Assembly: GCA_038245905.1 (NCBI GenBank)
Contig: JBBRRY010000043.1
Location: forward strand, 1-21,675
Reading direction: 5' to 3'
Length of the DNA: 21,675 nucleotides
Source of the DNA: Thermoanaerobaculia bacterium
GTDB lineage: Bacteria > Acidobacteriota > Thermoanaerobaculia > UBA5066
A program made the position numbers and the translations under genes. Shown here one piece after another: positions 4,663-21,674 of the stretch; position 1 is the first letter of the stretch; each line of letters starts with the position of its first letter. The notes beneath the pieces are model-generated. The model was given only the letters and a program-made list of their open reading frames with translations, searched no databases and had not been told where the DNA came from.

Positions 4663-4713
4663 GCCCCGAGGACCAGGCGCGAAGAACTCGCGGTCCGTTT
4701 GTCAGAGTCCTCG

Positions 4714-5077
4714 TCACCAGGGCGTGCCGTAAAGCCCCTTCGTGAGGATCCACGCCGAGAGCCCCACCAGCAGACCCCCGCTCGCCACCCGAACGACCAT
4801 GGGACGTGCGCGCAGGAAGGCGGTCCTCTCCCGGAAGGCCTGAGAGGCGTATCCGGCGGCAAGCATCGGGAGCGCGAAACCGACGCTGTAGAAGCCCAGC
4901 AGGGCCACGCCCTCGCCCAGCCGGGCCCTCGCCGCGACCATGCCGAGGACCGCGCTGAGGAACGGTGCGACACACGGGATCCACACGAGCCCGAGCGACG
5001 CGCCGAGGACGGAGCCTGTGCTCTCCCGGCTGCCCCGCCATCACGATCGGCAGGACGGGGAGCGTCTCCACGAGCAA
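4714..5077 (-). pseudogene. ccdA: CcdA/DsbD-type cytochrome c biogenesis membrane protein remnant
   Basis: The N-terminal piece LPVLPIVMAGQPGEHRLRP (the segment that normally follows SPC) lies in one frame. The C-terminal piece VLGASLGLVWIPCVAPFLSAVL...YSVGFALPML lies in another. The middle helices and first Cys are missing. Confidence 0.7.
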
Positions 5078-5084
5078 CCCGGGG

Positions 5085-5240
5085 TCAGCGGCCCGGCTTG
5101 CCGGGGATGCCCGACGGGACGGCGTCGACGGGCTGGATGCCGGGGGAATACCGTGTGATTTCCTTGCCGTCGGGGCCGACGAGAATCAGGTTGGGGAGGG
5201 AACGGACGCCTTACGTGTAGAACGCCTCCCGGTCAGCCGC
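5085..5240 (-). pseudogene. Thioredoxin-fold C-terminal remnant
   Basis: Reads ADREAFYT*GVRSLPNLILVGPDGKEITRYSPG..., resembling the YGVRSLPTL..DGKEI.R cis-Pro region. TAA at 5211-5213 sits where Tyr is expected, and there is no CxxC or start. Confidence 0.6.
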
Positions 5241-5281
5241 TCTCGCTCCTTGCCGGAGGTGAATTCCTTGTTGACCGCCGC

Positions 5282-5443
5282 TCAGCGGGAGCCGCGGCCG
5301 AAGGGGCTCTCGACGAGGGATTTCGGCGGCGGGCACGTGCAGCGCTTCTCGCGAGGAACGCCCGCAAGGGCTTCCTCGACGTGCCGACCGCACCCGGACC
5401 ACGTCGGCTTTCCGCACTGCGGACACGTCACGCGATGGCACAT
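5282..5443 (-). CDS. 53-aa Cys-rich miniprotein (putative metal/sulfur-binding)
   Basis: Below the ORF-track cutoff. MCHRVTCPQCGKPTWSGCGRHVEEALAGVPREKRCTCPPPKSLVESPFGRGSR has 6 Cys and 2 His, and lies downstream of a TATAAT -10 element. Confidence 0.8.
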   Translation of the reverse strand: MCHRVTCPQCGKPTWSGCGRHVEEALAGVPREKRCTCPPPKSLVESPFGRGSR

Positions 5444-5472
5444 GGCGCTCGATCTCTGCTCACCACGTCGGG

Positions 5473-5521
5473 TTGACCATTCATCGCTTAATGATTATAT
5501 TGGAATCTATGAGAGATGCAA
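5473..5521. promoter_or_regulatory. Overlapping divergent sigma70 promoters
   Basis: Plus strand: TTGACC(5473-5478)-N17-TATATT(5496-5501). Minus strand: TTGCAT(5521-5516)-N16-TATAAT(5499-5494). AT-rich patch in a GC-rich background. Confidence 0.7.
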
Positions 5522-5549
5522 GTCACGGGCACGGGCCCGGGAACCCGAA

Positions 5550-5732
5550 ATGAGCTCCGACGCCGCGTGGATGTGGGGCGCCCTTCTCGCCTGGATCCTC
5601 CTCCAGAAGTTCATCTTCCCCCGCCTCGACGTCCCGACGTGAGGGACGCGCGGTCCCGCCGGTGGCGGGACGAGCTGCTCGAGGCCGCCCCGTGCGAAAC
5701 AGCCGGAGGCGGAGAAGGACACCGACGCGTGA
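5550..5732 (+). CDS. Small single-TM protein, candidate selenoprotein (UGA31 read as Sec); 30 aa (5550-5642) if UGA is a stop
   Basis: MSSDAAWMWGALLAWILLQKFIFPRLDVPT-U-GTRGPAGGGTSCSRPPRAKQPEAEKDTDA*. A SECIS-like hairpin follows the UGA, and the final TGA (5730-5732) overlaps the GTG of the next gene. Confidence 0.6.
5653..5671 (+). promoter_or_regulatory. Candidate bacterial SECIS element
   Basis: Perfect 8-bp stem GTCCCGCC/GGCGGGAC with GGT apical loop. There are 10 nt from the UGA to the stem and 18 nt to the loop. No U-tract follows. Confidence 0.6.
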
Positions 5733-6871
5733 CCTTGCCCCCTCACGAGATCGACCGCCGGTTGGATGCCTTCCGCAAGCGGCGCGAGGCATTCGCCTCT
5801 CTCGGGCACGACTCGGGCCGCGCCGCCGCGCTCGTCCTCGACGCCGCCGGGCCATTCGAGGGCCCGGTCCTCGACGTCGGCTCCGGCATGGGCGTCATGG
5901 CCCGCGAGCTCGCGCGCCGCGGCCTCTTCGTCGAGAGCGTGGACGTGAACGCCGAGGACCAGGAAGTCGCCGCCGCGCTCACCGCGGGAACGGGCCTCGA
6001 AGCGCGGATACGCTTCACGCCCGCCGACGGCTCCGCCCTTCCCTTCCCCGACGGCACGTTTCCCTCAGTCATCTCGCACAACGTCCTCCACCACCTCGCG
6101 AACGGCGCCTCCGTCCTCCGAGAGTTCGTCCGCGTCCTCAGGCCCGGCGGCGCGCTGGTCCTCGCGGACTTCTCGCCCGAGGGCTTCGCCTTCGCGGCCC
6201 GCGTCCACGCCGCAGAGGGCGGCACGCACCCCGAAGGGCCGGTCACGCTCGACTGGGCCCGCGGCTTCCTCTCGGCCGCCGGGCTCCCGGAGACGGCCGT
6301 CGCCGAGGTTCATCACGAGCGGTTCGCGGCCTTCCGGAGACCCGCGACCGTGCACGCTCCGGTGCCGCCCGCCTTCGAGGCCCTCGACCGCGCGGGACTC
6401 TTCACGGCGCTCGACACGTTCGCGAAGAACTGGCTCGCCCACGACGGAAGCTGGTTCCTTGCGGCCGAGGAACGGTTCGGAATGGACACGGCCATGGAGC
6501 TCGACGCCGCGGCATGGCGCCGCTTCGCGGCCGCCGAGGCACGGCGGATCATGGAGGCTTACGCGATCCCGAAGGACGGCGGCCTCGACGCGCTCGCGCG
6601 GGCGCTCGCCTTCCGCGCCTACAGCTTCGTGAACCCGAGCCGGATCGAGAGGGACGGCGACGTCCTGCGCTTCTTCATGACGTCCTGCCGCGTGCAGGAG
6701 ACCCGCCGCCGCAAGGGCCTCCCGGACTTCCCGTGCAAGCCCGTCGGCCAGGTCGAGTTCGAGACGTTCGCGCGCACGGTCGACCCGCGCATCACGGCGC
6801 GTTGCCTCCACTGCCCGCCGGACCTGGACGCGCAGGGCCACTGCGGATGGGAGTTCCGTCTCATCGGGTGA
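5729..6871 (+). CDS. Class I SAM-dependent methyltransferase fused to a C-terminal DUF6125-like Cys-containing domain
   Basis: N-terminal domain: VLDVGSGMG, VDVN, DGSALPFPDGTF, NVLHH, RVLRPGG. C-terminal domain: AKNWLAHDGSWF...CRVQETRRRKGLPDFPCKPVG...CLHCPPD...CGWEF. GTG at 5729 has GGAGAAGGA upstream. The DUF name is from recall. Confidence 0.85.
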   Translation: MTLPPHEIDRRLDAFRKRREAFASLGHDSGRAAALVLDAAGPFEGPVLDVGSGMGVMARELARRGLFVESVDVNAEDQEVAAALTAGTGLEARIRFTPADGSALPFPDGTFPSVISHNVLHHLANGASVLREFVRVLRPGGALVLADFSPEGFAFAARVHAAEGGTHPEGPVTLDWARGFLSAAGLPETAVAEVHHERFAAFRRPATVHAPVPPAFEALDRAGLFTALDTFAKNWLAHDGSWFLAAEERFGMDTAMELDAAAWRRFAAAEARRIMEAYAIPKDGGLDALARALAFRAYSFVNPSRIERDGDVLRFFMTSCRVQETRRRKGLPDFPCKPVGQVEFETFARTVDPRITARCLHCPPDLDAQGHCGWEFRLIG

Positions 6872-9022: not shown

Positions 9023-9469
9023 TCAGTTGTAAGCGATCCGCGTCGCCTCGTCGACCAGGCACGGCGCCAAAAGGTTCTCCCAGGCCGGCCCCTCCCAGGT
9101 GCCCAGCGCTCGGTGTGCGTCGAAGTATTTCTGCGGGATGGGATGCGTGCCGACCCTCACCTCGAGGCCGAACCGCTCTGGGATCATCCGGATGAAGTGC
9201 TCCACGTGGGGGCACGGCGGGTATCCCACGAGGAACCCCGTCGCGAGATGCACGACCTGCGCGCCGTTCTTCTTCATCTCTTCCGGCGCGGACTCGATGT
9301 TCCCTCCGGGACAGCCTCCGCAGGACGTGAATCCCACGACTTCGACGTCGTTGCCCGCGTACGCCGCGAAGGCGCCCGCCCTCTCGCGCAGGGCGCGGAA
9401 GCACTTGCCTCCCGCGCAGCCTTTGTACCGGTCGCAGATGATGATGCCGATCCTGACTTTCTCGCTCAT
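9023..9469 (-). CDS. CGGC domain-containing protein
   Basis: IGIIICDRYKGCAGGKCF, FTSCGGCPG, YPPCP and VGTH motifs. ATG at 9469 with AGGAGG RBS at 9479-9484. Confidence 0.88.
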   Translation of the reverse strand: MSEKVRIGIIICDRYKGCAGGKCFRALRERAGAFAAYAGNDVEVVGFTSCGGCPGGNIESAPEEMKKNGAQVVHLATGFLVGYPPCPHVEHFIRMIPERFGLEVRVGTHPIPQKYFDAHRALGTWEGPAWENLLAPCLVDEATRIAYN

Positions 9470-9531
9470 TTCGTTACGCCTCCTGCAGGTCGTGCCCGAT
9501 CGCGGGTCGTGGCGGAGAGGCCTGACTTCGT

Positions 9532-9555
9532 CATTTCGGCACAAGCCGAAATGTA
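9532..9555. promoter_or_regulatory. Perfect 9-4-9 inverted repeat, likely repressor operator overlapping a -10 element
   Basis: CATTTCGGC-ACAA-GCCGAAATG (9532-9553). A minus-strand TACATT at 9555-9550 points toward the CGGC gene. Confidence 0.6.
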
Positions 9556-9611
9556 CCGGCCGCCCGGCTCCCCCGGCATGAGGCGCCTGCATCAGGCACC
9601 TCGCCGTGACC

Positions 9612-10685
9612 TCAAAGGAGCGCGTTGAACAGGTACCCGACGAGGAGGATTCCCGTTCCCACGACGCTCAAGAAGACCGCGATGAGGCGCGGGGTGAGGA
9701 CCTTGCGGAGGATCACCATCTCCGGGAGCGACAGGGCGATGACCGACATCATGAACGCGAGGACGGTGCCGAGAGCGGCCCCCTTTCCGAGGAGCGCCTG
9801 CACGACGGGGAGGATTCCCGCGGCGTTGGAGTACATCGGGATCCCGATCAGGACGGCGAGAGGCACGGACCACCAGGCGCCCTTGCCCATGATCGACGCC
9901 ATGAAGTTCTCGGGCACCCAGCCGTGGATTCCCGCACCGACGGCGATCCCCAGGATGACGTAGGGCCAGACCTTCCCGACGATCTCGCGGACCTCCCCTC
10001 GTCCGATCGCGAGGCGCTGCTCCCAGCCGGGCTTCTCCCCCGCCGGAGAGCCCACGGGACCACGGCTCTGATAGACCCACGGCTCCACCCACGCCTCGAG
10101 CTTCAGCCGGCCGATGACCCAGCCCGATGCGAACGCGATCAGGAGGCCGGTGCCGAGGTAGAGGCCGGCGACCTTCCAGCCGAACAGGCCGAAGAGAAGC
10201 GCCAGCACGATTTCGTTGACCATGGGCGCGGCCACGAGGAACGAGAACGTCACGCCGAGCGGCACGCCGGCCGTCACGAAGCCGATGAACATCGGGACCG
10301 CCGAGCACGAGCAGAACGGCGTCACGACGCCGAGAAGCGACGCGAGCGCGTTCCCTGCGGTCTCCCGCCGCCCGGCCAGAAGGGTCCGCGTCCTCTCCGG
10401 CGTGAAGAAGCTCCTCACGATGCCGACGACGAAGACGACGAGCGTGAGGAGGAGAAGGACCTTCGGGACTTCGAAGACGAAAAACTGAACCGCTTCGCCA
10501 AAATGCGTCTCGGGCGCGAGGCCGAGGAGACGGGTCGTGACGAATCGCGCGGCGTCTCCGTTCACGACATAGGCGCCGACCCAGGCGGCCAAGACCGCGA
10601 GATGGAGCAGGACCGTCCGGAGCCGGAGGCCGGCCGTCGGGGCTCCCTGCGGCTCGTAGGAAGGAAGGACGAGGGCTTCGCTCAT
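9612..10685 (-). CDS. arsP: ArsP/DUF318-family permease
   Basis: TPFCSCSAVP, FLVAAPMVNE, IGIPMY and LSLPEMVIL motifs with many TM helices. Coupled to arsC by an ATGA overlap. Confidence 0.85.
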   Translation of the reverse strand: MSEALVLPSYEPQGAPTAGLRLRTVLLHLAVLAAWVGAYVVNGDAARFVTTRLLGLAPETHFGEAVQFFVFEVPKVLLLLTLVVFVVGIVRSFFTPERTRTLLAGRRETAGNALASLLGVVTPFCSCSAVPMFIGFVTAGVPLGVTFSFLVAAPMVNEIVLALLFGLFGWKVAGLYLGTGLLIAFASGWVIGRLKLEAWVEPWVYQSRGPVGSPAGEKPGWEQRLAIGRGEVREIVGKVWPYVILGIAVGAGIHGWVPENFMASIMGKGAWWSVPLAVLIGIPMYSNAAGILPVVQALLGKGAALGTVLAFMMSVIALSLPEMVILRKVLTPRLIAVFLSVVGTGILLVGYLFNALL

Positions 10686-11101
10686 TTCAACTCCGCTGCA
10701 ACGAGAACAACCAGGCGTGCGCGGATCTCGTCGCGTACGCGCCGAAAGACAGGAAGGGCGTCCTCGCCGCCGCCGGCAAGGGCAGGATCCTCGAAGGTCT
10801 CATGGAGCGTCTTCCGTGCGCCTGGCAGGTTCGGGCAGGCTTCCCGCGCCGAGTCGCAGACCGTGACGACGAGGTCGAACGCAAGGCCCTTCAGCGCCTC
10901 GATGGACTTGCTGCGGTGCGACGAGATGTCGACTCCCGCCTCGCCCATGACGCGGATCGCGAGCGGATGCACGGTGGATGGCCGCGTCCCGGCGGAATGC
11001 ACCTCGACGCGATCGCCGAGGTCGTGGCGGACCCAGCCCTCGCCCATCTGCGACCGGCACGAGTTGCCTGTGCAGAGGATCAGGATGCGAGGCGTGCTCA
11101 T
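10682..11101 (-). CDS. arsC: Thioredoxin-coupled arsenate reductase (LMW-PTP fold)
   Basis: P-loop CTGNSCRS, resolving pair [15 protein letters not shown] and [11 protein letters not shown] at 11101 overlaps the acr3 stop. Confidence 0.95.
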
Positions 11102-12141
11102 GCGAAGTACCGCCGCTGGAACCAGAACGCCACGTTGACGAGTCCGATCATCACCGGCACCTCGACGAGCGGCCCGATGACCGCCGCGAAGGCAGCCCCG
11201 GAATTGATCCCGAAGACCGCGACGGCCACGGCAATCGCCAGCTCGAAATTGTTGCTGGCCGCGGTGAAGGCCAGGGTCGTCGTCTTGGCGTAGCCGGCTC
11301 CGGCCCGCTTTCCCATGAGGAACGAGAGCAGGAACATCACGACGAAGTAGACGAGCAGCGGGATCGCGATCCGGACGACGTCCATCGGAATCGAGACGAT
11401 GAGCTTGCCCTTCAGGCTGAACATCACCACGATCGTGAAGAGGAGAGCCACGAGCGTCACCGGGCTGATCCTGGGGACGAACTCCCGGTGGTACCACTCT
11501 CTTCCCTTCAGCTTCACGCCGACGAACCGGGTGAGGGCGCCGGCGAGGAAGGGAATGCCCAGGTAGATGAAGACGCTCTTCGCGATCTCCCCCATGCCGA
11601 CCTTCACGAGGCTTCCTTCGAGGCCGAACACGGGAGGGAGCACCGTGATGAAGAACCACGCGTAGACGCTGTAGAAGAGAACCTGGAAGACGCTGTTGAA
11701 GGCCACGAGCCCCGCGGCGTACTCGGTGTCTCCCTTCGCGAGCTCGTTCCAGACGATGACCATGGCAATGCAACGGGCGAGGCCGATCAGGATGAGCCCT
11801 ACCATGTAGTCGGGGTGGTCGTGGAGAAACACGATGGCGAGGAAGAACATCAGGATCGGGCCGATCACCCAGTTCTGAAGAAGCGAGAGCCCGACGATCT
11901 TCCGGTCCCGGAAGACGTCGCCCATTTCTTCGTACCTCACCTTGGCGAACGCCGGGTACATCATCAGGATGAGCCCCGCCGCGATCGGGACGTTCGTCGT
12001 ACCGACCTGGAACGAGTTGATGAATCCCTCGACCCCCGGAACGAACGCGCCGACGGCCACTCCCGCCGCCATCGCGGCAAAGATCCAGAAGGTGAGCCAG
12101 CGGTCGAGGAAGGAGAGCTTCCTCGCGATGCCGTCGGTCAT
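11098..12141 (-). CDS. acr3: Acr3-family arsenite efflux transporter
   Basis: [46 protein letters not shown] and GPLVEVPV motifs. Confidence 0.96.
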
Positions 12142-12146
12142 CGGAT

Positions 12147-12980
12147 CTACGCCGGCTTCGTGGCCCGCACGAAAGCGCTCATGAACTTCCCGTCCACGAG
12201 AGGCGCCATCGCGTCCGCGTCGATCCCCGCAGTCGAGAGGAAGTCCCGCGCGTCCGCAATCGTGTAGACGCGTGTCGGGACGATCTCGACGTCCGTGAAG
12301 CCCGCGCTCTTCAGCTTCGCCTCGAATTCTTTTTCTTCGAGCGCGCCCGCGAGGCACCCGATCCAGAGCTCGACGCTCTTCCGGACATCGGACGGCACTT
12401 CGCCCCGCACGACGACGTCCGACACCGCGAACCGTCCGCCCGGCTTCAGCACCCGGAACGCCTCGGCCAGCGCGCAATCCTTGTCCGCCGAGAGGTTCAC
12501 GACGCAGTTCGAGATGATGACGTCGACGCTCGCGGAAGGGAGCGGGATGCTCTCGAGCTCGCCCTTGAGGAACTCGACGTTCGTGACACCCGCCTTTTGC
12601 TGGTTCGCGCGCGCGAGGGCGAGCATGTCGTCCGTCATGTCGAGGCCATAGACCTTCCCGGTGGGGCCGACACGGCGCGCCGAGAGGAGAACGTCGATGC
12701 CGCCTCCCGAGCCGAGGTCGAGGACCGTGTCGCCTTCGTGGAGCTCCGCGAGGGCCGTCGGGTTGCCGCAGCCGAGCGACGCGGACACCGCCAGCTCGGG
12801 GAGACCCGCGGTCTCCGACAGCGAATAGAGATTCGACGTGATCGGGTCTTTCTCGCCGCCGCAGCACGTCGGCGCGCAGCATGACGTCCCTCCGGCCACG
12901 GCCCGCCGCGCGGCCTCTCCGTATTTCTCCTTGACCACGTCTTTGATGCTCGTTTCCGTCTTGATGTTCGCTTCCACCAT
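12147..12980 (-). CDS. arsM: Arsenite S-adenosylmethionine methyltransferase
   Basis: N-terminal [31 protein letters not shown] and [18 protein letters not shown] before ATG at 12980. Confidence 0.95.
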
Positions 12981-12994
12981 GGGTTCCTCCTTCT

Positions 12995-13012
12995 CATCAA
13001 CAGTTCTTGATG
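12995..13012. promoter_or_regulatory. ArsR box between arsR and arsM
   Basis: CATCAA-CAGTTC-TTGATG matches the ATCAA-N6-TTGAT operator known for Synechocystis ArsR. Confidence 0.75.
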
Positions 13013-13031
13013 TATCGGTCACACGAAACTC

Positions 13032-13358
13032 TCAGCAGCAGCGCGCGGCGACCTCCCGCACGGATCCGATGAAACTCTTGATCTCCTGAAGGACGTCCGG
13101 GTTCAGCGCGTAGTGCACCCAGCGCCCCTCCCGCCTGTCGGAGACGAGGCCGGCGTCCTTAAGCGCTTTCAAGTGGAACGAGAGCCGCGACTGTCCCGCG
13201 TCGAGCGCGTCCGTCAGGGTGCAGACGCACTGCTCGCCGCCGAGGAGCTTCCCGACGATCCTGAGGCGCGTTTCGTCCGACAGGGCGTGGAAGAGTCGCG
13301 CGAGCCGCGTCACGTCACGAGGGCGCTCGAGCATACGGGCCGGAAGGAGAGCCGCCAT
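13032..13358 (-). CDS. arsR: Arsenic-responsive repressor
   Basis: FHALSDETRLRI, alpha3 EQCVCTL, QSRLSFHLKALKDAGLV, GRWVHY and a C-terminal CC. Heads the ars operon. Confidence 0.95.
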   Translation of the reverse strand: MAALLPARMLERPRDVTRLARLFHALSDETRLRIVGKLLGGEQCVCTLTDALDAGQSRLSFHLKALKDAGLVSDRREGRWVHYALNPDVLQEIKSFIGSVREVAARCC

Positions 13359-13392
13359 GCCTTCAATGTATCAAGAAATCTTTATATGTCAA
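13359..13392 (-). promoter_or_regulatory. ars promoter with ArsR box in the spacer; probably leaderless arsR mRNA
   Basis: TTGACA(13392-13387)-N16-TACATT(13370-13365) with TGn extension, then 6 nt to the ATG at 13358. ATCAA-N6-TTTAT lies at 13370-13385. Confidence 0.75.
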
Positions 13393-13410
13393 GACGGCCC
13401 TTCCCCCCCC

Positions 13411-14262
13411 TCAGCCGCCGATCGCGGCCATCGACCGCGGCGTCTCGAACGAGAGGGGCGGACGCCTACCCAGGAGAAAGCGATCCACGTCTTCCTCGAG
13501 GCCGTCGCCGTCGCCCGCCTCCAGCCGTGCGAGCAACGGAAGCGGCTCCGGGTCCATCAGGCAGCGCCTCAGATCGCCACGCGAATCGAGCCTGAGACGC
13601 CGGCAGCCGCCGCAGAAGGAGTGCGAGATCGGCTCGATCCAGCCCGTGACGACTTCGACCCCCTGGATGCGCACGCGGAGCCGGCGCGCCGGCCCTGCTC
13701 CCGATTCCGAAGGCTCGAGGGCGCACCCGAGGCCCAGGGCCAGCCGCTCGCGCACTTCGCGAGAAGAGACGAACTCGTCCGTCGCGAACGCCGCGGCGGG
13801 CCCGGTCCGCATCAGCTCGATGAAGCGGACCTCGAGGCCTCTTTCGGAAGCAAACTCGAGGAGCGCCGGAACGTCGCTCTCGAACGTGCTGCGCCTGAGC
13901 ACGGCGTTCAGCTTCACGGGTGCGAGGCCGGCGGCGAGCGCGGAGAGCCGGGACCCGTTCGTCGTCATGGAGATCTCGCCGACTCCCGGCTCCCCCGCGA
14001 GGGCCCTGACGAACGAGACCAGACCCGCCCGGAGCAACGGCTCGCCTCCGGTGATCTTGACGCGCGTCACCGGGAGGCGGCGGACGGCCCAGCCGACCGC
14101 GGCCGCCAACCGGCCGAGCGCCGGGAGAGCTCGATCGGCCGGCTCACGCTCGAGTCCGGTCCGGCAGTAGCGACACTGGAGGTCGCATCGCTCCGTCACC
14201 GAAACACGAAGAGAGACGGCGCCGCTCCGAACGGCGGCGTCTCTCGCTTCCGGGGTCGACAA
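13411..14262 (-). CDS. moaA: GTP 3',8-cyclase MoaA homologue with an apparent internal in-frame deletion (possible pseudogene)
   Basis: LRVSVTERCDLQCRYC, TGGEPLLR, TTNG, VKLNAV, RFIELM, FCGGCRRLRL...CL and C-terminal IGG. The NVSLD segment is absent. The start (TTG at 14262) is uncertain. Confidence 0.85.
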   Translation of the reverse strand: MSTPEARDAAVRSGAVSLRVSVTERCDLQCRYCRTGLEREPADRALPALGRLAAAVGWAVRRLPVTRVKITGGEPLLRAGLVSFVRALAGEPGVGEISMTTNGSRLSALAAGLAPVKLNAVLRRSTFESDVPALLEFASERGLEVRFIELMRTGPAAAFATDEFVSSREVRERLALGLGCALEPSESGAGPARRLRVRIQGVEVVTGWIEPISHSFCGGCRRLRLDSRGDLRRCLMDPEPLPLLARLEAGDGDGLEEDVDRFLLGRRPPLSFETPRSMAAIGG

Positions 14263-14270
14263 GGGCCTCT

Positions 14271-15218
14271 TCAGCGCACCGCCTTGCGCACGGCGGCCTC
14301 GATCTCGTTCTGGATGTCGCCCGGCATCTGCATGTTCTTCATGAACGCCCAGTTCCCGGCGTCCTGAAAGTAGAGCTTCATCCGCCACATCTCCTTGAGG
14401 AGAGTGACGGAGCTGCCGGCGCCTTTCTTCGTGACGACGACTTCGACCGGAAACGCGGCCGCGTGGTCGATCCCCGGGAACAGATTCGCTTCCGTCGCCC
14501 GCTTCTCGCCCGCGATCCCAAACGCCCGGCCCTCGGTCTTCGGGTTCGTGAGGCCGACGACGAAGACCTCGTCCGACGCCTTGTACGCGTAGACGGCGTG
14601 CCAGCCCGCGGCGTCCGCGACACCTGCGCGGATCGCCTCGGCCAGCTCGGCTGGCGCCTTCGTGGACGCGAGCACCGGGACGATCTTGTCCGGGAACGCG
14701 CCTCCGCCCATTCCGCCGATCGCTCCGCTCTCGCGGATCTGCCCGGCCTGCTTCTGCGAGACCGGCCCGAGCGGCGCGAGAGCGGCGGCGACGTCGTCGA
14801 CGGCCTTCTGGCCCGCCGCGTCCTTCGCATCCGACGCATAGAACGTCCGGAGGAGCGAGACGGGGTTCACGACGGCGACGTTCGTGCCGGACGCGTTACC
14901 GTATACCGCGAGGCGCATCGGCAGTCCGAAAGCCTTGTCGGCGCCTCCGGAGAGGACCTCGGCGGCCCATGGCTCGGACGCGAACACGATCGTTCGCGCT
15001 TTCGCCTGGCAGCCCGCGGGGACGCCATTGTCGAAGCTCGCGAGGATCGTGAAGCCGGCGCCCTTGAGCGCCGCCTCCGCCTTCGCCGACGTCTCCGGGA
15101 CGTCGGCCTTGAGACCCGAAAGGAGCGTGACGGTGACCCCCTGCGTCCTCTCGACGCCCGCCGCGAGGGCGGGCGCCGCGAAGGCGAGGAGGACGAACGG
15201 CGCGATCAGGCGTTTCAC
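14271..15218 (-). CDS. Secreted/periplasmic hypothetical protein with DUF302-like segments
   Basis: Signal peptide MKRLIAPFVLLAFAAPALA. LKGAGFTIL and LPMRLAVY...VAVVNP resemble DUF302, with a second related segment FPVEVVV. Single Cys. Confidence 0.7.
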   Translation of the reverse strand: MKRLIAPFVLLAFAAPALAAGVERTQGVTVTLLSGLKADVPETSAKAEAALKGAGFTILASFDNGVPAGCQAKARTIVFASEPWAAEVLSGGADKAFGLPMRLAVYGNASGTNVAVVNPVSLLRTFYASDAKDAAGQKAVDDVAAALAPLGPVSQKQAGQIRESGAIGGMGGGAFPDKIVPVLASTKAPAELAEAIRAGVADAAGWHAVYAYKASDEVFVVGLTNPKTEGRAFGIAGEKRATEANLFPGIDHAAAFPVEVVVTKKGAGSSVTLLKEMWRMKLYFQDAGNWAFMKNMQMPGDIQNEIEAAVRKAVR

Positions 15219-15225
15219 GGCGTCC

Positions 15226-16476
15226 TCAGAAGCCGAACGACAGGCCGAGGTCGAACACCCACTGGTCCATCTTCAGCTCGATGGTCTGCTTGCCGGGCAC
15301 TTCGAGGGGATTCGGGCCGGAGACGGACTTGGAGAGAGCGCGCACCACCGCGAGGTTGACCTTCGTCTTGTCGCCCACCTTCGCGCTCGCACCCAGCGTC
15401 ACATGGTGTTCGATGACGCCGGGGGCGAGGATGTTGAAGAGGACTTCGGACTCCGGGATCGGCTGCTTCGCGTAGGCGTAGCCCGCACGGAGCGTCAAGT
15501 CCGGGCTCGCAGCCCACTGCAGACCGAGCTTGTACGCTGTGACGTCTTTCCAGCCGAAGCCGGCGCCGCCGTCGTCGCCGAGACGCGCCGTCATGAGATT
15601 CGGAATGAGCGGGTTCCCGATCGACTCGGTCTTGCTGTAATAGATCTGCTGGACGTCGAACGCGACCGTGAAAGACGGGGCGGGCTTGATCGCAACACCG
15701 ACCGTCCAGTTCGCCGGGATGTCGAAGTCGCCCTGCTCCGCGAAGAGCCCGGCGTACTTCTTGAACTTCTGCATCTCCATTTCGGTCTGGTAGGAGCCGC
15801 CGACCGAAAGCCACGGCGTCAGCTTGCCGAGGTACCCGACCCGCACGCCCCATCCGAGCGACGTGTCGAAGCCGTTGTTCGAGAGGCTCGCGGCCGACGA
15901 CGAGAAGGGCGCGAAGCTCCCGACTCCCTCGGCCTGGAAGCGCTGGTACCCGACGACCGGGCTCACGCCGAACGCGTGGCCCTCCGCGACTTTGTACGTG
16001 AAGGTCGGCGCGATGTACATCTGCATGAGGTTCACACCCGTGCGGCCGGCGTAAAAGACCGACTCCTCGTAGGCCGTGTTCATGCCTCCGTTGCCGTAGA
16101 GCGCGATGCCGAGCGTCATCGTGTCGTTCAGCTTCCAGTTCGCGCCGATAGAGGGCATGAGGAAGACCGAGGTCCCGCTCTTCACCGTTCCCGGTGTCAG
16201 GCCGAACGTGCCGGGAAAGCCCGAGGGCGTGCCGGTCACCGTGAACTCGCGGTTCGGGTTGAAGACGGCGATGCCGAGGTCGTAGCCCGTCGCCCACGCG
16301 TTCCCCGCGGGGTTCGTCGCGGGGGACATCGTATTGAGCGACAGCGCGACGCCCGCGCCGCCCATTCCGTTCTGCGCGGTCCCATAGCCGAGCTGGAAAT
16401 AGCCGTCCGTGGCGAGGGCGGGGGCGGCGGTGAGCGCGAGCAGCGCGACGAGCGCGACGCCGATCCGGATCTTCAT
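15226..16476 (-). CDS. FadL/TodX-family outer-membrane transport protein
   Basis: Signal peptide, hatch region TDGYFQLGYG..GMGGAGVA..NPA, amphipathic beta-strands, LTLRAGY and C-terminal Phe. AAGGAG RBS before ATG at 16476. Confidence 0.9.
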   Translation of the reverse strand: MKIRIGVALVALLALTAAPALATDGYFQLGYGTAQNGMGGAGVALSLNTMSPATNPAGNAWATGYDLGIAVFNPNREFTVTGTPSGFPGTFGLTPGTVKSGTSVFLMPSIGANWKLNDTMTLGIALYGNGGMNTAYEESVFYAGRTGVNLMQMYIAPTFTYKVAEGHAFGVSPVVGYQRFQAEGVGSFAPFSSSAASLSNNGFDTSLGWGVRVGYLGKLTPWLSVGGSYQTEMEMQKFKKYAGLFAEQGDFDIPANWTVGVAIKPAPSFTVAFDVQQIYYSKTESIGNPLIPNLMTARLGDDGGAGFGWKDVTAYKLGLQWAASPDLTLRAGYAYAKQPIPESEVLFNILAPGVIEHHVTLGASAKVGDKTKVNLAVVRALSKSVSGPNPLEVPGKQTIELKMDQWVFDLGLSFGF

Positions 16477-16538
16477 GTGAGCACTCCTTCTCGAAAGCGG
16501 GCCGCTCGGGTCCGCAGATTTGTCGACGACGGGACGCA

Positions 16539-17723
16539 TCAGCAGCCCCCGCCCTTCTTCGGTGCAACAGCCGGCGCGGCCGCGGGCCGCGGCGCGGCGG
16601 ACACGGGCGAGGCCGCAGAGGCCGCGCCCGTGAAGTGGGCGACCAGTGCCGCCTGTTCGCGATAGGCAGCCACCTGTGCAGCGGTCGGGTTCCCCGGCGG
16701 CTTCGGCGCCGTCAGGACCTCGGCGTTCCAGGCGTCGTATCCGCCTTCGAGGACGAAGACCTCGCCTCCGAACGCCCGCACGCCCTCCGGGAGGATCGCG
16801 AGGTCGCCCTGAGCGTAGACCGCGAGCTTCCGGGTCGGCGCGAGCGCGGCAACGGCCGACGCGCCCCTCTCCTCCGGGCCTGCCGCCATCGCGCCGGGCA
16901 GTCCGCGCCTCCCCGCGGCCGTCTCGGGCCGCAGGTCGACGACCCACCACGACTCAGGAGACACGACGAGTTGCGTCGCGAGCTCTGCGGCACCGATCCT
17001 CTGGACGGCCTTCGAAGCAGCAACCGTTTGGCGCGCCGGGAGCGCGAGGGCGACGAGCGCCAGCACGGCGACGGCGGCGAAGCCGGAGAAGATGCGCAGC
17101 TTGACACGCGCGGGCGAGGCCGGGACGAGCTCTCCCTGCCGCGGGGCGAAGATCGCCTCGAGCTTCTCGCCGCCGAGAAACGCGCCGACCGCCATCGCGA
17201 CGACGCCCGCCGCGACGACCGCGATCGGGACTCCGATCAGCCGGTCGAGCCGGACGACGCCCATCGCCCCGCTCTTGTAGAAGGTCTCGAGCGGCCCGTA
17301 GCCGAAACCGAACGCGAGCGAGCCGAGCATGACGCCGCCGATCGCGAAGACGCCGTCGAGATTTCCCGACGCGATCGCGACGACGCCCGTCCCGGGGCAG
17401 TAGCCCGACAAGATGAAGCCGGCTCCGAGGAGGAGGCCGCCGACGAGCTGCGGCCAGAGGAACGTCTCGGGCACCGTGATCTTCGCGAGATCGAGGACGC
17501 CCACCCCGGCGAGGAACGCCATCCCGACGCAGGCCGTCACGATCGCGCTGAACATGACCTTCAGGACGCGCACGTCCGTCAGGTAGAACTGCGCGGCGAG
17601 GTTGCGGGCGCGTCCGAAGCCCGCCCGCTCGAGGGCGAACCCGAACGCGACGCCGACGAGCGTCCCGATCAGGAGGCCCGTGTACGCGCCGAACACGTCG
17701 TGTGGGAAGAGAGGGAACGTCAT
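16539..17723 (-). CDS. YeeE/YedE sulfur-transport protein fused to a degenerate rhodanese domain and a C-terminal GGC tail
   Basis: FGFALERAGF and GFILSGYCPGT (YeeE-type). VVDLRP...LPGA...AVYAQG...VLEGGYDAW gives a rhodanese fold without the loop Cys. Ala/Pro-rich tail ends KKGGGC. ATG at 17723 overlaps the upstream stop. Confidence 0.85.
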   Translation of the reverse strand: MTFPLFPHDVFGAYTGLLIGTLVGVAFGFALERAGFGRARNLAAQFYLTDVRVLKVMFSAIVTACVGMAFLAGVGVLDLAKITVPETFLWPQLVGGLLLGAGFILSGYCPGTGVVAIASGNLDGVFAIGGVMLGSLAFGFGYGPLETFYKSGAMGVVRLDRLIGVPIAVVAAGVVAMAVGAFLGGEKLEAIFAPRQGELVPASPARVKLRIFSGFAAVAVLALVALALPARQTVAASKAVQRIGAAELATQLVVSPESWWVVDLRPETAAGRRGLPGAMAAGPEERGASAVAALAPTRKLAVYAQGDLAILPEGVRAFGGEVFVLEGGYDAWNAEVLTAPKPPGNPTAAQVAAYREQAALVAHFTGAASAASPVSAAPRPAAAPAVAPKKGGGC

Positions 17724-18259
17724 CGCCACTCCTTCCGGACGAACGGGGCGACGAGGTATCCGCCCGTGAAAACCGCCATCATGAAAACCCACGAGCCGAG
17801 CGAAAGCGCCGCGCCGCCCGTGAGCGCCTGGCCCGACGTGCAGCCGCGGGCGAGGCGCGCCGCGAACCCCATGAGCACGCCACCCACAACCGCGAGCACG
17901 AGGCGCTGCATCGTGGTCGCGCGCGGGCCCTTCTCGATCCCGATCTTCAGGCGCCCGGCCGAGTAGGCGCCGAGGACACCGCCGAGGAAGACACCGAGGA
18001 CCTCGAAGACGAGCCAATCCTCGAGAACGTGCTTGCCAGGGCCGTAGTACTGAGAGAAGTACGCATTCGTCTCGATCGTCTTCGGCGCCACGAAGTGGGC
18101 GCCCGCGACCGCGAACCGCGTCACGGCGCCGGACGAGCCGAGGCCGAAGCCCATGACAAGGAACGACGCGAGGAGGACGAGACCGAGAAAGACGCCCGCG
18201 ACGTACGGATTCCAGAAGGGGCGTTCGACTGGGGGCTGCAGTGTGGACACGGCGTTCAC
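17720..18259 (-). CDS. YeeE/YedE-family (thiosulfate/sulfur transporter-like) membrane protein
   Basis: WNPYVAGVFLG, GGVLMGFAARLARGCTSGQAL and four hydrophobic segments. GTGA overlap with the psrC stop. Confidence 0.9.
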   Translation of the reverse strand: MNAVSTLQPPVERPFWNPYVAGVFLGLVLLASFLVMGFGLGSSGAVTRFAVAGAHFVAPKTIETNAYFSQYYGPGKHVLEDWLVFEVLGVFLGGVLGAYSAGRLKIGIEKGPRATTMQRLVLAVVGGVLMGFAARLARGCTSGQALTGGAALSLGSWVFMMAVFTGGYLVAPFVRKEWR

Positions 18260-19239
18260 CTCATGACGAGGAGCCGGAAGGCCGAGGCCTGGCCGGCGGC
18301 GAGAAGGATCCAGCGCAGCGCGAGGCCGCCGGCGAGGATGAGGACCGGGACGAGGGCGACGAACGGCAGGTGACGCTTCGACTCGAGGAACTCCATCCCG
18401 AGCGGGACGAGAAGGCCCATCACGACGACGACGGACCAGAAGACGGCGGTGTACGGCCCGCCGAGGAAGCTCCGGGCCGCGAAACGGCCGGCCTCCCCGG
18501 ACGTCGCCCAGCCGAGGAGGAGGAGGACGATCAAGACGAGCTCGGCGCCGATCGCGATCGCGTCCCAGCGGACCAGAGTCCTTCGTTCGGCTTCATCGAG
18601 ATTGAGAAGGAGGAGCGACGCGGCGCCCGTCGAGATGCCCGACGCGAGGAAGAGCGGTCCGAGAACGGCGCTGTTCCAGGCGAGGCGCGAGGGCATCGTC
18701 CCGAGGAGGAGACCCGTATAGAGCCCGAGGCCCACGCCCGTCACGACGCTCGTGACGAGAATCGCGCGGCGGTGGCCGTCCGCGAACACCGTGAGACGGC
18801 CGAGAAGGCTCCTGAGCGCGCGGGGTATGCGTACGACGAGCCAGAGGCGCTGTACGGCGTCCAACGAACCGAGCCCGAGGAGCAGCCCGGCCGGGTAGAT
18901 CAGGACGAGAATCCACGCGCCCCACGACATCGGCGAGGTTGGGCGGAAGACAGCGTAGAAGCGCCACGCCCAGAGGCGGTGCGCGAGGTCCAGCCAGAGA
19001 GCGAGCATACCGAGCGAGAGGAGCCCGAGCGCCGCGAAAGGCGCCGGGAGCAGAGCGCGCGAGTGCGGGCGCGCGCCCGAGGCGAGCTCGAGAGCCGCCG
19101 AAAGGATGAAGATGCCGGCCACGATCCCGCCGAGGAAGAGGTACACCGTGATCTCCCAGCCCCAGACGTGGAGAGACGGGTCGATCTGCGCGTTGGCGCG
19201 GGTCGTGACGGTCTCGAGAAGCGAAGGCGTCATCGTCAT
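18256..19239 (-). CDS. psrC: NrfD/PsrC-type polysulfide reductase membrane anchor
   Basis: WGWEITVYLFLGG, LWLDL, TSPMSWGAWIL, YTGLLL...AWNS and LRWIL motifs with about 8 TM helices. Confidence 0.88.
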   Translation of the reverse strand: MTMTPSLLETVTTRANAQIDPSLHVWGWEITVYLFLGGIVAGIFILSAALELASGARPHSRALLPAPFAALGLLSLGMLALWLDLAHRLWAWRFYAVFRPTSPMSWGAWILVLIYPAGLLLGLGSLDAVQRLWLVVRIPRALRSLLGRLTVFADGHRRAILVTSVVTGVGLGLYTGLLLGTMPSRLAWNSAVLGPLFLASGISTGAASLLLLNLDEAERRTLVRWDAIAIGAELVLIVLLLLGWATSGEAGRFAARSFLGGPYTAVFWSVVVVMGLLVPLGMEFLESKRHLPFVALVPVLILAGGLALRWILLAAGQASAFRLLVMR

Positions 19240-19243
19240 ACCC

Positions 19244-19792
19244 TCAGAGGAGGAAGTAGAGGTTCGGCTGCGCGCCGCTCTCGGGGTGGTTCACCTTCCA
19301 GCGGCGGGTGCGGAGGTTCTTCGAGACGTCGGACTCGGAGTCGTTCAGGTCGCCGAACGCGAGCGTCCCGGTCGGGCAGACGCTCACGCACGCGGGAAGG
19401 AACCCCGCCTGCACGCGGTGGAGACAGAACGTGCACTTGTCGATGTAGCCCTTCGGGTTCACGAAGCGCGCGTCGTACGGGCAGGCGGTGATGCACGCCT
19501 TGCAGCCCGAGCACTTGCCGTGAGTCACGAGGACGACGCCGCCCTCGTTCACGTGGCTCGCGCCCGTCGGGCAGTTCCTGACGCAGGGGGCGTCCGAGCA
19601 GTGATTGCAACGCTCGGAGCGGATCTCGGCGGCGAGGAGCGGGAACTCCCCGCGCACGTCCTCGACGATCCAGTCGCGGCAGAAGCCGTCCGGGACGTCG
19701 TTCTCGGCCTTGCAGGACAGGACGCACGCCTTGCAGCCGACGCAGAGACGGGTGTCGACGGTCATCGCGTAGCGCTTCTTTGTCGTGCTCAT
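19244..19792 (-). CDS. psrB: Four-cluster Fe-S subunit (PsrB/NrfC type)
   Basis: CVGCKACVLSC, CNHCSDAPCVRNCP, CSGCKACITACPY and KCTFC...PACVSVCP. Confidence 0.92.
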   Translation of the reverse strand: MSTTKKRYAMTVDTRLCVGCKACVLSCKAENDVPDGFCRDWIVEDVRGEFPLLAAEIRSERCNHCSDAPCVRNCPTGASHVNEGGVVLVTHGKCSGCKACITACPYDARFVNPKGYIDKCTFCLHRVQAGFLPACVSVCPTGTLAFGDLNDSESDVSKNLRTRRWKVNHPESGAQPNLYFLL

Positions 19793-19793
19793 G

Positions 19794-21674
19794 TCAGGCC
19801 CTCTCGACGGAGACGAAGTTGACGCTCATCCCGGTGCTCCCCGCCACGGGGTCCACCGCGACCCTCGTGACGAGCTCCGAGTCGTCGAGGCCGCGCCCCT
19901 TCGCGAACTTCAGGCCGGGGCTCGTGTGGCCGTAACCGTGGACCACGAAGACACAGTCGGGGCGAATCCGCTGCGTCGCCTTGAGCTTCGCCGGAGTGGA
20001 CCTGGCGCCGTCCTGATTCACGAGGACGACCTTCTCCCCGTCCGCGAGGCCGCGCTCCTTCGCGATCTTCGCGTTCAGCCAGACCTCGTTGTCCTTCGTG
20101 ACCTCGGAAAGGAACCGGTTATTCGTGGTGCGCCCGAACGTGTGGACGGGCGTCCGTCCGAAGAGGAGCCGGAACTGGCCGGGACCGGGTCCCTCGTGCC
20201 GCGTGTAGGGCGGCAGCGGCGGGAGGCCAGCGGCCTCAAGCTGCTTCGAGTAGAGCTCGATCTTCTTCGACGGCGTCGCGAATGTCAGGGCGAGCCCGTC
20301 CTCGGTCGTCACGGGCACGGGCTTGCCCAGGAGGACGCCCTTCGTCTTGATCTTCGCGACGTCGTAGCCGCCGGCGGCGAGGCGCGCCTCAACCATCGTG
20401 CCGGCGTCGTCCCACGGGAAGTATTGCCCGAGGTTCATGCGGTTCGCGAGCTGCTTCGCGATCCACCAGCCCGGCTTGCTCTCGTAGAGGGGCGGCACGA
20501 CGGGCTGGCGCACGGCGAGGAACGGCTCGCGCCAGGGCGTCGGCGCGATGTCGTCCCAGCGCTCGAGGTACGTGCATTCCGGAAGGACGACGTCCGCGTA
20601 GCCGACGATCTCGGCTGGCAGGACGTCCACCGCGACGAGGAGGTCGAGGTGCTGAATCGCCTCGAGAACCTTTTCCCTCTGCGGAAGGGCCTGCAGGAGG
20701 TTCGTGCCGTACACGATCCACCCCTTGACGGGCGCCGAAGCGCCGAGCCGGCCGGGAACTGTCGCGTCGCAGATGCCGTGAGAGAGCACCTCGTCGGCGA
20801 ACGGGTACGTCACGCCGTCCGGGTGGTCCTGTGTCGCCTTCGCCTTCACGGCGTACTCGGGAACGGGGGTCTTCGGGACCTTCATCGACGACGGGATGAA
20901 GAAACCGCCGCGGCGCCCCCAGCTTCCGACGAGGGCGTTGAGGATCGCCACCGCCCGGCTCCGCTGCGTGTCGTCGCCGTACCAGGTCGTATGGCGGCCG
21001 GGATGGACGAGCGACGCGGGCCGCGCCCCCGCGATCACGCGCGCCGTCTCGACGATGACCTCGGGGCGGATCGTCGTCTCCGTGAAGGCCCACTCGGGGG
21101 TCTTGTCCGCGACGTGCTTCTTGAGCTCCTCGAATCCGGTCGCGTACGTCTCGATGTATTCGCGGTCGTAGAGGCCCTCGTTGATGATCACGTGCGTCCA
21201 CGCAAGGAGGAGCGCGAGGTCGGTCCCGGGCTTGATCGGGAGCCAGTATTTCGCCTTGCCCGCGGCGGTCGAGAAACGCGGGTCGACGGCGATGACCGTC
21301 GCGCCCTTCGCGATCGCGAGCGCGAAGTCCTGCACCTGCGTGTTGTGCATGTTCTCGCCGAGGTGCGAGCCGAGGAGCGTGATGACGCGCGCGTTCGCGA
21401 GGTCGAGGACTTCGGGCGAGCCGACGGGAGAGCCGTACGTGAGCTGGAATCCCACCTCGCGCGGCCCGCGGCACTGCCCATAAGACGGCGCCGTGACGTT
21501 CGCCGAGCCATAGGCGAAGAGTAGGTGCTTGAAGAACGAGCCGCCGAAGCCGTGCGAGAAGAGGGCAACCTTGTCGGCACCGGCCTCCTTCTGGATTCTC
21601 AGAAGCTTTTCGGCCGTGAAGTCGAGGGCCGTCTCCCACGAGACTTCCTCGAACGTCTGATCGCCGCGCTTTCC
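19794..21674 (-). CDS. psrA: Molybdopterin oxidoreductase catalytic subunit, PsrA/PhsA-like (N-terminus outside the window)
   Basis: The frame is open to the window edge (GKRGDQTFEEVSWETALDF...APSYGQCRGPREVGF). Putative Mo-ligand Cys is at 21471-21473 in a loop like T. thermophilus PsrA. Also VDPRFS, PGTDLA, ADVVLPECTYLER, TPSKKIELYS and HTFGRT. Confidence 0.88.
   Translation of the reverse strand, partial: GKRGDQTFEEVSWETALDFTAEKLLRIQKEAGADKVALFSHGFGGSFFKHLLFAYGSANVTAPSYGQCRGPREVGFQLTYGSPVGSPEVLDLANARVITLLGSHLGENMHNTQVQDFALAIAKGATVIAVDPRFSTAAGKAKYWLPIKPGTDLALLLAWTHVIINEGLYDREYIETYATGFEELKKHVADKTPEWAFTETTIRPEVIVETARVIAGARPASLVHPGRHTTWYGDDTQRSRAVAILNALVGSWGRRGGFFIPSSMKVPKTPVPEYAVKAKATQDHPDGVTYPFADEVLSHGICDATVPGRLGASAPVKGWIVYGTNLLQALPQREKVLEAIQHLDLLVAVDVLPAEIVGYADVVLPECTYLERWDDIAPTPWREPFLAVRQPVVPPLYESKPGWWIAKQLANRMNLGQYFPWDDAGTMVEARLAAGGYDVAKIKTKGVLLGKPVPVTTEDGLALTFATPSKKIELYSKQLEAAGLPPLPPYTRHEGPGPGQFRLLFGRTPVHTFGRTTNNRFLSEVTKDNEVWLNAKIAKERGLADGEKVVLVNQDGARSTPAKLKATQRIRPDCVFVVHGYGHTSPGLKFAKGRGLDDSELVTRVAVDPVAGSTGMSVNFVSVERA

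Follow-up and report, generated by a model that had tools for sequence, protein, structure and literature searches.

A candidate family of small single-pass membrane selenoproteins encoded across a conserved UGA in Thermoanaerobaculia and other bacteria

The eukaryotic SELENOK and SELENOS are small single-pass membrane selenoproteins with a helix near the N-terminus and a disordered-looking tail, SELENOS having a Cys-Sec pair. The bacterial SECIS element of the E. coli fdhF type is an in-frame hairpin located after the UGA, with a small apical loop containing a G; bSECISearch applies a 16-37 nt rule to this G in the small apical loop of the hairpin after the UGA. Table 1 of a 2026 review holds 119 selenoprotein families (PMC13188914), and BSepDB counts 111 bacterial ones (PMC13326102).

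Here, we analyse a stretch of DNA of 21,675 bp and 69% GC (the window), which belongs to contig C43 of a 3.8-Mb, 96%-complete metagenome-assembled genome (MAG) of Thermoanaerobaculia (Acidobacteriota), hereafter G000. An earlier, sequence-only reading of the window had proposed a small membrane selenoprotein, and comparison with homologues makes it highly likely that the segment 5550..5732 of the forward strand is a genuine selenoprotein gene, whose UGA at 5640-5642 is read as selenocysteine.

Gene layout and conservation of the UGA codon

The ATG at 5550 opens a 30-codon ORF (MSSDAAWMWGALLAWILLQKFIFPRLDVPT) that is closed by the TGA at 5640-5642. Read-through of this codon gives 60 residues, in which U31 is followed by GTRGPAGGGTSCSRPPRAKQPEAEKDTDA up to the stop TGA at 5730-5732, the whole gene comprising 60 codons plus stop. 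The N-terminal part contains a single predicted transmembrane helix (approximately W7-F23, 5568..5618, limits inferred from the sequence), with W15, L18 and Q19 near-invariant in an alignment of 28 homologues. It is followed by the motif P24-R-L-(G/D)-V-P-T30 (5619..5639), immediately 5' of the Sec codon, of which P, G and T vary little or not at all across 111 unique sequences. Beyond the UGA, the codon of Cys43 (5676..5678; U-x11-C) encodes a candidate partner of Sec31 that is nearly invariant in the same 28-homologue alignment. Finally, the read-through stop overlaps the GTG start of the next gene in a GTGA (5729..5732), an arrangement also observed as 4-nt overlaps of Pfam-supported genes at 10682-10685 and 15215-15218 of the window. 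The transmembrane ORF, the U31-x11-C43 read-through product and the 4-nt coupling had all been described by the sequence-only reading, and are indeed present in the DNA.

Upstream of the gene lies a putative sigma-70-like promoter, TTGACC-17-TATATT (5473..5501, forward strand), with 10 of 12 matches, the single site returned by a promoter scan for which 0.1 was expected in shuffles. This AT-rich stretch is kept in same-genus relatives, where translation of the upstream frame reads 'lndyivi'. The Shine-Dalgarno (SD) sequence before 5550 is weak in the window (gggaacccgaaATG), as was already noted in the initial reading; most relatives have a GGAG about 9 nt upstream.

A translated search that reads through stops was run on 61 related genomes, and 28 of them contain a homologue interrupted by exactly one in-frame TGA: G000 itself, 21 of 28 other genomes of the same genus and 6 of 8 representing other genera of the family. 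The alignments of these 28 homologues extend past the TGA. The 61 genomes include two unpublished ones (G037 and G042), neither of which gave a significant match. A profile of the 28 homologues matched in 89 of 401 sampled Acidobacteriota genomes: 88 of the 91 matches span the codon, which is TGA in 88/88, while three alignments end before it. A sample of Planctomycetota gave a family match in 28 of 251 genomes, with TGA in 27/27 codon-spanning matches; in G687 a weak match ends before the UGA codon. We also scanned species genomes for the codon-blind peptide pattern [FV][VI][FL]PRLGV[PS]T, in which the next codon is left free. This gave 344 stretches, 163 of which were confirmed, and the best 80 of these 163 all have TGA. 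These 80 loci come from Acidobacteriota, Planctomycetota, Myxococcales, Geobacter, Desulfuromonadaceae and Nitrospirae, as well as from Ignavibacteriales, Cytophagia, Chthonomonadales and Thermomicrobiaceae MAGs.

Altogether, the codon after ...GVPT is TGA in 135/135 loci (111 unique), whereas the second, true stop of the unique loci is mixed (TGA 84, TAA 14, TAG 12). Homologues with TAA or TAG at codon 31, a possibility raised by the sequence-only reading, number 0 of 135, and the codon is TGA, or TGC/TGT in the Cys homologues described below. Over the 111 unique sequences, entropy is zero at the three TGA positions and reaches 1.5-1.7 at the third positions of the adjoining invariant Pro, Gly and Thr codons, and the per-codon values before the UGA (0.83/0.43/1.39) have the periodicity of coding sequence.

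Downstream coding is also conserved past the UGA, as proposed initially, with Pro and Cys codons that vary synonymously. Two types of tail can be distinguished: one of the form U-[AG]-[VS]-P-x-P-[AR]-G..., in which a Cys comes 10-18 residues later and to which the window protein belongs (U-x11-C), and one of the form U-M/A-x-x-x-C, i.e. U-x4-C. Pro occupies codon +3 in 81 of 111 sequences, with CCC, CCG, CCT and CCA all in use, and codon +5 is Pro in 80 and Cys in 25 (TGC 18, TGT 7); as the tail subgroups were defined by the very residues counted, it is the third-position spread that is informative. A tail Cys is present in 98 of the 111 unique members, encoded by both TGC and TGT, and the 13 tails without Cys indicate that a Sec-Cys pair is not a universal mechanism in the family. 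Tails measure 16-113 residues (median 29) and are rich in G, P, A, R, S, E, T, D and K, although the G/P/A/R composition is also expected from translated GC-rich non-coding DNA.

Homologues with Cys in place of Sec exist as well. A word-indexed protein search returned 441 matches, and nearly all of the best 120 are 'hypothetical proteins' of 29-31 residues, while an exhaustive protein profile search returned 260. In 45 longer database proteins, the Sec site is occupied by Cys (34), W (4), G (3) or S (2), or is unclear (2), the W and G cases being probably gene calls under other genetic codes. Examples of the Cys form are ...LGIPT-C-MSGGC and ...PT-C-AVPAPRR. Some homologues seen as protein only (P0089, P0141, P0182 and P0219) carry CC or CCC at this site (...LGIPT-CCC-AVPD...). 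At the DNA level, metagenome contigs of one clade (LNRW) have TGA at 37, TGC at 20 and TGT at 10 of 67 loci; this set comprised 80 loci, of which the 13 where a regular expression did not match the motif were dropped, and one of the two scan patterns forced Cys while the other was codon-blind, which means that the Sec:Cys ratio is not a frequency. The TGC/TGT homologues of this clade run on in frame with the same x4-Cys motif: for instance, L191 (TGA) and L193 (TGC) both read PRMGVPT, then Sec or Cys, then MGGSCAVSPHPAAE, and are identical over 14 residues past the site. Cys-encoding homologues with conservation beyond the codon, which the sequence-only reading had suggested looking for, are therefore at hand in 30 of 67 LNRW-clade loci. 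Cys forms occur in metagenome contigs and protein databases, and none was found among the 401 plus 251 species genomes scanned. Fused longer forms were not found in the protein search at 134-2000 aa, which counts as weak evidence, and a search of the ESM Atlas gave only one unnamed 123-member cluster (score 0.88).

The post-UGA hairpin and the selenocysteine machinery

Ten nucleotides after the TGA (5643-5652), the window contains GTCCCGCC (5653-5660), a GGT loop (5661-5663) and GGCGGGAC (5664-5671), i.e. a perfect 8-bp stem with a GGU loop (5653..5671, forward strand) and 18 nt between UGA and loop. This SECIS-like hairpin doubles as codons G35-P-A-G-G-G-T41. The GC stem, the loop and the lack of a U-tract are as initially described: no T-run lies 3' of the hairpin, and a terminator scan of 5250-5800 found no terminator-like site. 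An Rfam search of the window gave no family. The local fold (71 nt, 5630-5700) has z = -1.12, with 24 of 200 shuffles folding as well. The hairpin of the window is thus within chance for DNA of 69% GC, and its significance can come only from comparison of homologues.

We surveyed homologues with our own script, which accepts at least 6 contiguous pairs (G-U allowed), a loop of 3-8 nt and a stem start 12-24 nt after the U of the UGA. The proportion with hairpins of at least 6 bp is 122/139 for Sec forms (96/111 and 26/28), 7/21 for Cys forms and 19% for 6,950 dinucleotide shuffles; for stems of at least 7 bp the values are 96/139, 1/21 and 8%, respectively. Most of the 17 Sec forms that miss the 6-bp criterion have 5-bp stems. 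The 122 hairpins have 62 distinct 5' arms, and at least 115 of them have a G in the first two loop bases, the commonest loops being GGC (40), GUC (16), CGGGC (12), GGA (11) and GGU (8). The distance from the U of the UGA to the start of the loop is 18-27 nt. As judged from these sequences, the hairpin goes with the UGA and is largely lost in Cys forms.

The sequence-only reading had suggested conservation and covariation analysis of the hairpin. Conservation is borne out by the 122/139 Sec forms, and covariation appears in a subclade but not in a broader alignment. In 50 gap-free, UGA-anchored U-x4-C sequences, RNAalifold found no column-consistent pair, which can be explained by the fact that the stem register shifts by up to ~8 nt between clades. 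In a subclade of 13 sequences sharing one register, 95.6% of cells pair, and two of seven pairs show compensatory double changes; in one of these, the Cys codon changes synonymously from TGC to TGT and the 3' arm from G to A. The observed score was not equalled by any of 500 shuffles, and when the structure is slid, 21-63% of cells pair, with the reservation that the 13 sequences are kin and that the structure was derived from those same sequences.

G000 encodes all four components of the Sec machinery that the sequence-only reading had named: selD (333.6 bits), selB (297.7 bits), selA (427.9 bits) and the tRNA-Sec, selC (62 bits), each above its curated cut-off. The selD gene (G000:C11:26-994, L001) is a selenoprotein gene itself, with one in-frame TGA (SSAG-U-ACKLG), and its 6-bp stem, which starts 14 nt after the UGA and carries a GUC loop, has the same geometry as the hairpin of the window.

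The family also follows the Sec trait across genomes. Among the 401 Acidobacteriota genomes, 301 have selA, in a tally that takes in three unpublished, family-negative genomes (G037, G108 and G210). When the two tables are set side by side, selA accompanies the family in 88 of 89 genomes, so that the family is present in 88/301 selA-positive and 1/100 selA-negative genomes; the sole carrier without a selA match, G287, has a tRNA-Sec at 71.6 bits. In Planctomycetota, selA is present in 186 of 251 genomes and in 25 of the 28 family-positive ones, and two carriers without a selA match (G520 and G650) both have selB above the cut-off. Carriers from other phyla had selA in the four cases tested (4/4). 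Since carriers include kin and are not independent, we give this co-occurrence as counts without a P-value. Each UGA-form genome tested has some Sec-specific component.

Genomic context and alternative readings

In the window, the small gene is followed by a gene coding for a SAM methyltransferase fused to DUF6125 (5729..6871, forward strand; Pfam). Of 111 unique loci, 19, all from close relatives, have this gene after the small ORF, and its start is usually located 1 nt before the read-through stop in the relatives that have it; in the full-length cases among these 19, the stop either overlaps the start (GTGA/ATGA) or sits 14 nt inside the gene. The two genes are probably co-transcribed in this lineage alone, and probably co-translated in this genus, given that the read-through frame ends on the methyltransferase start codon. 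The partnership with the methyltransferase proposed by the sequence-only reading thus stands as an adjoining gene in close relatives, and does not extend to the rest of the family, where neighbours are unrelated. These include rplQ, lon, aspS, thioredoxin, cysteine desulfurase, NfeD/Band7 and cytochromes, none of them conserved family-wide; greedy gene calls around the 111 loci are noisy in high-GC DNA, and these statements on context rest on Pfam-supported ORFs.

The downstream gene shows variants among relatives. At the same-genus locus L027 (1518-3068), the methyltransferase-DUF6125 frame as cut also has a C-terminal YgaP-like transmembrane domain (PF11127), and at L026, L028, L032 and L036 the alignment downstream of the small gene is limited to the DUF6125 half, which indicates that the partner gene is itself variable. 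At five related loci, represented by L048 (1662-2201), a gene for an ArsR-family regulator ends at the start of the small gene.

Within this genus, the gene sits in an island of arsenic, chromate and metal-efflux and sulfur/selenium functions. Its neighbours in the window are MarR, ArsR, a class V aminotransferase, methionine gamma-lyase, ChrA, a CDF transporter, a CGGC protein, ArsP, an ArsC-like phosphatase, ACR3, a second methyltransferase, another ArsR, YeeE and a Psr-like molybdoenzyme. A dense metalloid/sulfur island at 9023-21674 comprises a CGGC-domain protein, ArsP, an LMW phosphatase (ArsC-like), ACR3, an ArsM-like methyltransferase and ArsR, together with a MoaA-like radical SAM protein, FadL, YeeE/YedE, NrfD/PsrC, a 4Fe-4S subunit and a molybdopterin oxidoreductase gene that runs off the window.

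Upstream of the small gene, the window differs from same-genus relatives: in these, ~70-160 nt separate it from the end of methionine gamma-lyase, and the window has an extra ~890 bp (4663-5549) between the two. A 53-codon ORF on the reverse strand (5282-5443), divergent from the small-gene promoter, has a CxxC...GC...CxC arrangement (MCHRVTCPQCGKPTWSGCGRH...) and no Pfam or NCBIfam match. Another reverse-strand ORF (4714-5040) has a match to the CcdA/DsbD transmembrane domain that is confined to the C-terminal half of the domain (positions 129-216 of PF02683). We considered this half-CcdA ORF as a second selenoprotein with an N-terminal half hidden by a TGA, and rejected it, the extended frame not being CcdA-like.

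If the UGA were an ordinary stop, translation would yield the membrane peptide of 30 residues, and the hairpin would act as an RNA element, regulatory or stabilising, in the spacer before the methyltransferase gene. The public gene calls of 29-31 residues are in line with this, as are the unexceptional local fold (z = -1.12), the lack of an RNAalifold consensus over 50 sequences and the 13/111 tails without Cys. However, a plain stop codon would hardly be TGA in 135/135 loci when 24% of the true stops of the same genes are TAA or TAG, nor would one expect TGC/TGT homologues that run on in frame to the same x4-Cys motif, Pro and Cys codons that vary synonymously beyond the UGA, or Cys forms that have largely lost the hairpin. 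The Sec machinery of the carriers and the lack of a coupled downstream gene in most family members also argue against termination, which we regard as very unlikely. Less likely again, to the point of being extremely improbable, is that the stretch after the UGA represents an N-terminal extension of the methyltransferase starting from GTG 5639, in a GTGA overlap with the stop of the small ORF. It is true that the methyltransferase frame is open from 5516 in the window and that GTG 5639 lies in it, but in 14 of the 22 loci of the closest relatives (L023-L043, L051) a stop closes this frame 16-29 codons beyond the UGA. Moreover, the base before the TGA may be G, T, A or C (ACG, ACT, ACA, ACC), leaving no conserved start codon, and the frame conserved between genera is the read-through frame.

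A different possibility would keep the decoding of the UGA and make the locus mainly regulatory, the UGA-SECIS ORF being a selenium-sensing leader that gates the methyltransferase start, and the peptide being secondary. The strong amino-acid selection on the helix and the PRLGVPT motif across phyla is difficult to reconcile with such a role, as is the existence of Cys forms, which could not sense selenium. In addition, 92 of 111 unique loci have no methyltransferase downstream and their neighbours vary, and in the window an SD-like AAGGA located 10 nt before GTG 5729 may allow the methyltransferase to start independently. A leader would fit the read-through stops that overlap the methyltransferase start or sit 14 nt inside it in the full-length cases of the 19 relatives, as well as the island formed in the window by genes for metalloid resistance and S/Se metabolism (methionine gamma-lyase, two methyltransferases, ars genes, YeeE); on balance, we consider it unlikely.

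Possible function and comparison with known selenoproteins

According to the selenoprotein reading, which we prefer, SelB and Sec-tRNA, guided by the hairpin at 5653-5671, would decode the UGA at 5640-5642 as Sec. The predicted product of 60 residues would consist of a short acidic N-terminus, one transmembrane helix, the PRL(G/D)VPT-Sec motif and a flexible Gly/Pro/charged tail carrying Cys43. Sequence comparison places it in a family of predicted proteins of ~45-75 residues found in Acidobacteriota, Planctomycetota, Myxococcota, Geobacter, Desulfuromonadaceae, Nitrospirota and other phyla.

On the N side of the helix, a near-invariant Asp/Glu is present in 95 of 111 sequences and the mean net charge is -0.86, against +1.41 for the 12 residues before Sec. 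Following the positive-inside rule, this suggests that the N-terminus is outside and the tail inside, a topology that would place the selenol at the cytoplasmic membrane surface. Together with the tail Cys (U-x4-C or U-x10-18-C), it might form a reversible selenenylsulfide or bind soft metals or metalloids, and a redox or soft metal/metalloid role, close to the one put forward in the initial reading, would fit this pairing of a membrane-surface selenol with a nearby thiol. A polar Gln in the middle of the helix (Asn in the LNRW clade) is near-invariant and hints at a helix-helix contact.

A bolder proposal is that of a pan-bacterial single-pass family of SELENOK/SELENOS-like kind, with its selenol at the inner membrane face, whose UGA would in Thermoanaerobaculia also serve as a selenium gate for translation of the methyltransferase-DUF6125 gene; taken as a whole, we see it as a speculation with a rather small chance of being right. 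If the gate existed, coupled translation of the enzyme would depend on Sec-tRNA carrying ribosomes beyond codon 31, and methylation capacity would track selenium supply. No description of a bacterial family of this kind was found in the literature searched.

Within the limits of the models, table and literature compared, this appears to be a new selenoprotein family with a standard bacterial decoding mechanism, in keeping with the initial statement that it is not a characterised one. Pfam and NCBIfam 20.0 gave no match for the window protein, 21 Cys forms and 18 diverse Sec forms, and none of the 119 families in Table 1 of PMC13188914 has such a motif or architecture, the families of Haft and Tolstoy (2025) having been compared through the NCBIfam models and this table. 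No such family is mentioned in the passages compared from the deep-Sep (PMC12013277) and BSepDB (PMC13326102) accounts, and full-text literature searches with the motif strings and with small or single-pass bacterial membrane selenoproteins found no description. The family thus seems to be missing from the 119- and 111-family lists despite its presence in 89/401 Acidobacteriota and 28/251 Planctomycetota genomes. In databases it appears almost exclusively as 'hypothetical proteins' of 29-31 residues, truncated at the UGA, and this annotated stub of some 30 residues and the rarity of Cys forms, both of which defeat homology-based selenoprotein finders, would explain why it has been missed so far.

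If correct, this assignment adds one selenoprotein to the count of many genomes and raises the role of a lone selenol at the bacterial membrane surface. Being short and simple, and offering over 60 different stems within a single coding context, the gene also lends itself to testing SECIS rules; locally, the assignment points to a possible selenium-dependent methyltransferase link in a metalloid-resistance island.

Comparison with described systems shows both likenesses and differences. The window hairpin resembles that of the genome's own selD and the fdhF-type SECIS in lying within the reading frame, in starting 13-14 nt downstream of the UGA and in having a small apical loop whose first base is G; it differs from them in belonging to no Rfam family and in having a family-specific stem sequence that varies between clades. 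UXX-star, KCU-star and similar proteins (NF041114, NF041211, NF033934; PMC13188914) are likewise small, bacterial and truncated at the UGA in databases. However, they have their Sec within ~3 residues of the C-terminus, and 40 members of the new family gave no NCBIfam match. The putative mercuric transport selenoprotein (PF02411, MerT-like; PMC13188914) also combines membrane Sec/Cys with a metal context, as in the window, but has three helices instead of one and a different motif; no PF02411 match was obtained, and the family-wide context of the new proteins is not mer/ars.

The likeness to SELENOK and SELENOS is one of analogy only, and consists in a tiny protein with one N-proximal helix, a Gly/Pro/charged tail, one Sec and often a partner Cys. 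No sequence relation was found (no selenoprotein family is among the Pfam matches), and the SECIS of the new family is of the bacterial in-frame type, unlike theirs. Finally, SELENOK and SELENOS have their Sec 2-3 residues from the C-terminus, whereas in the new family it would be located at the membrane boundary, 16-113 residues before the end of the protein.
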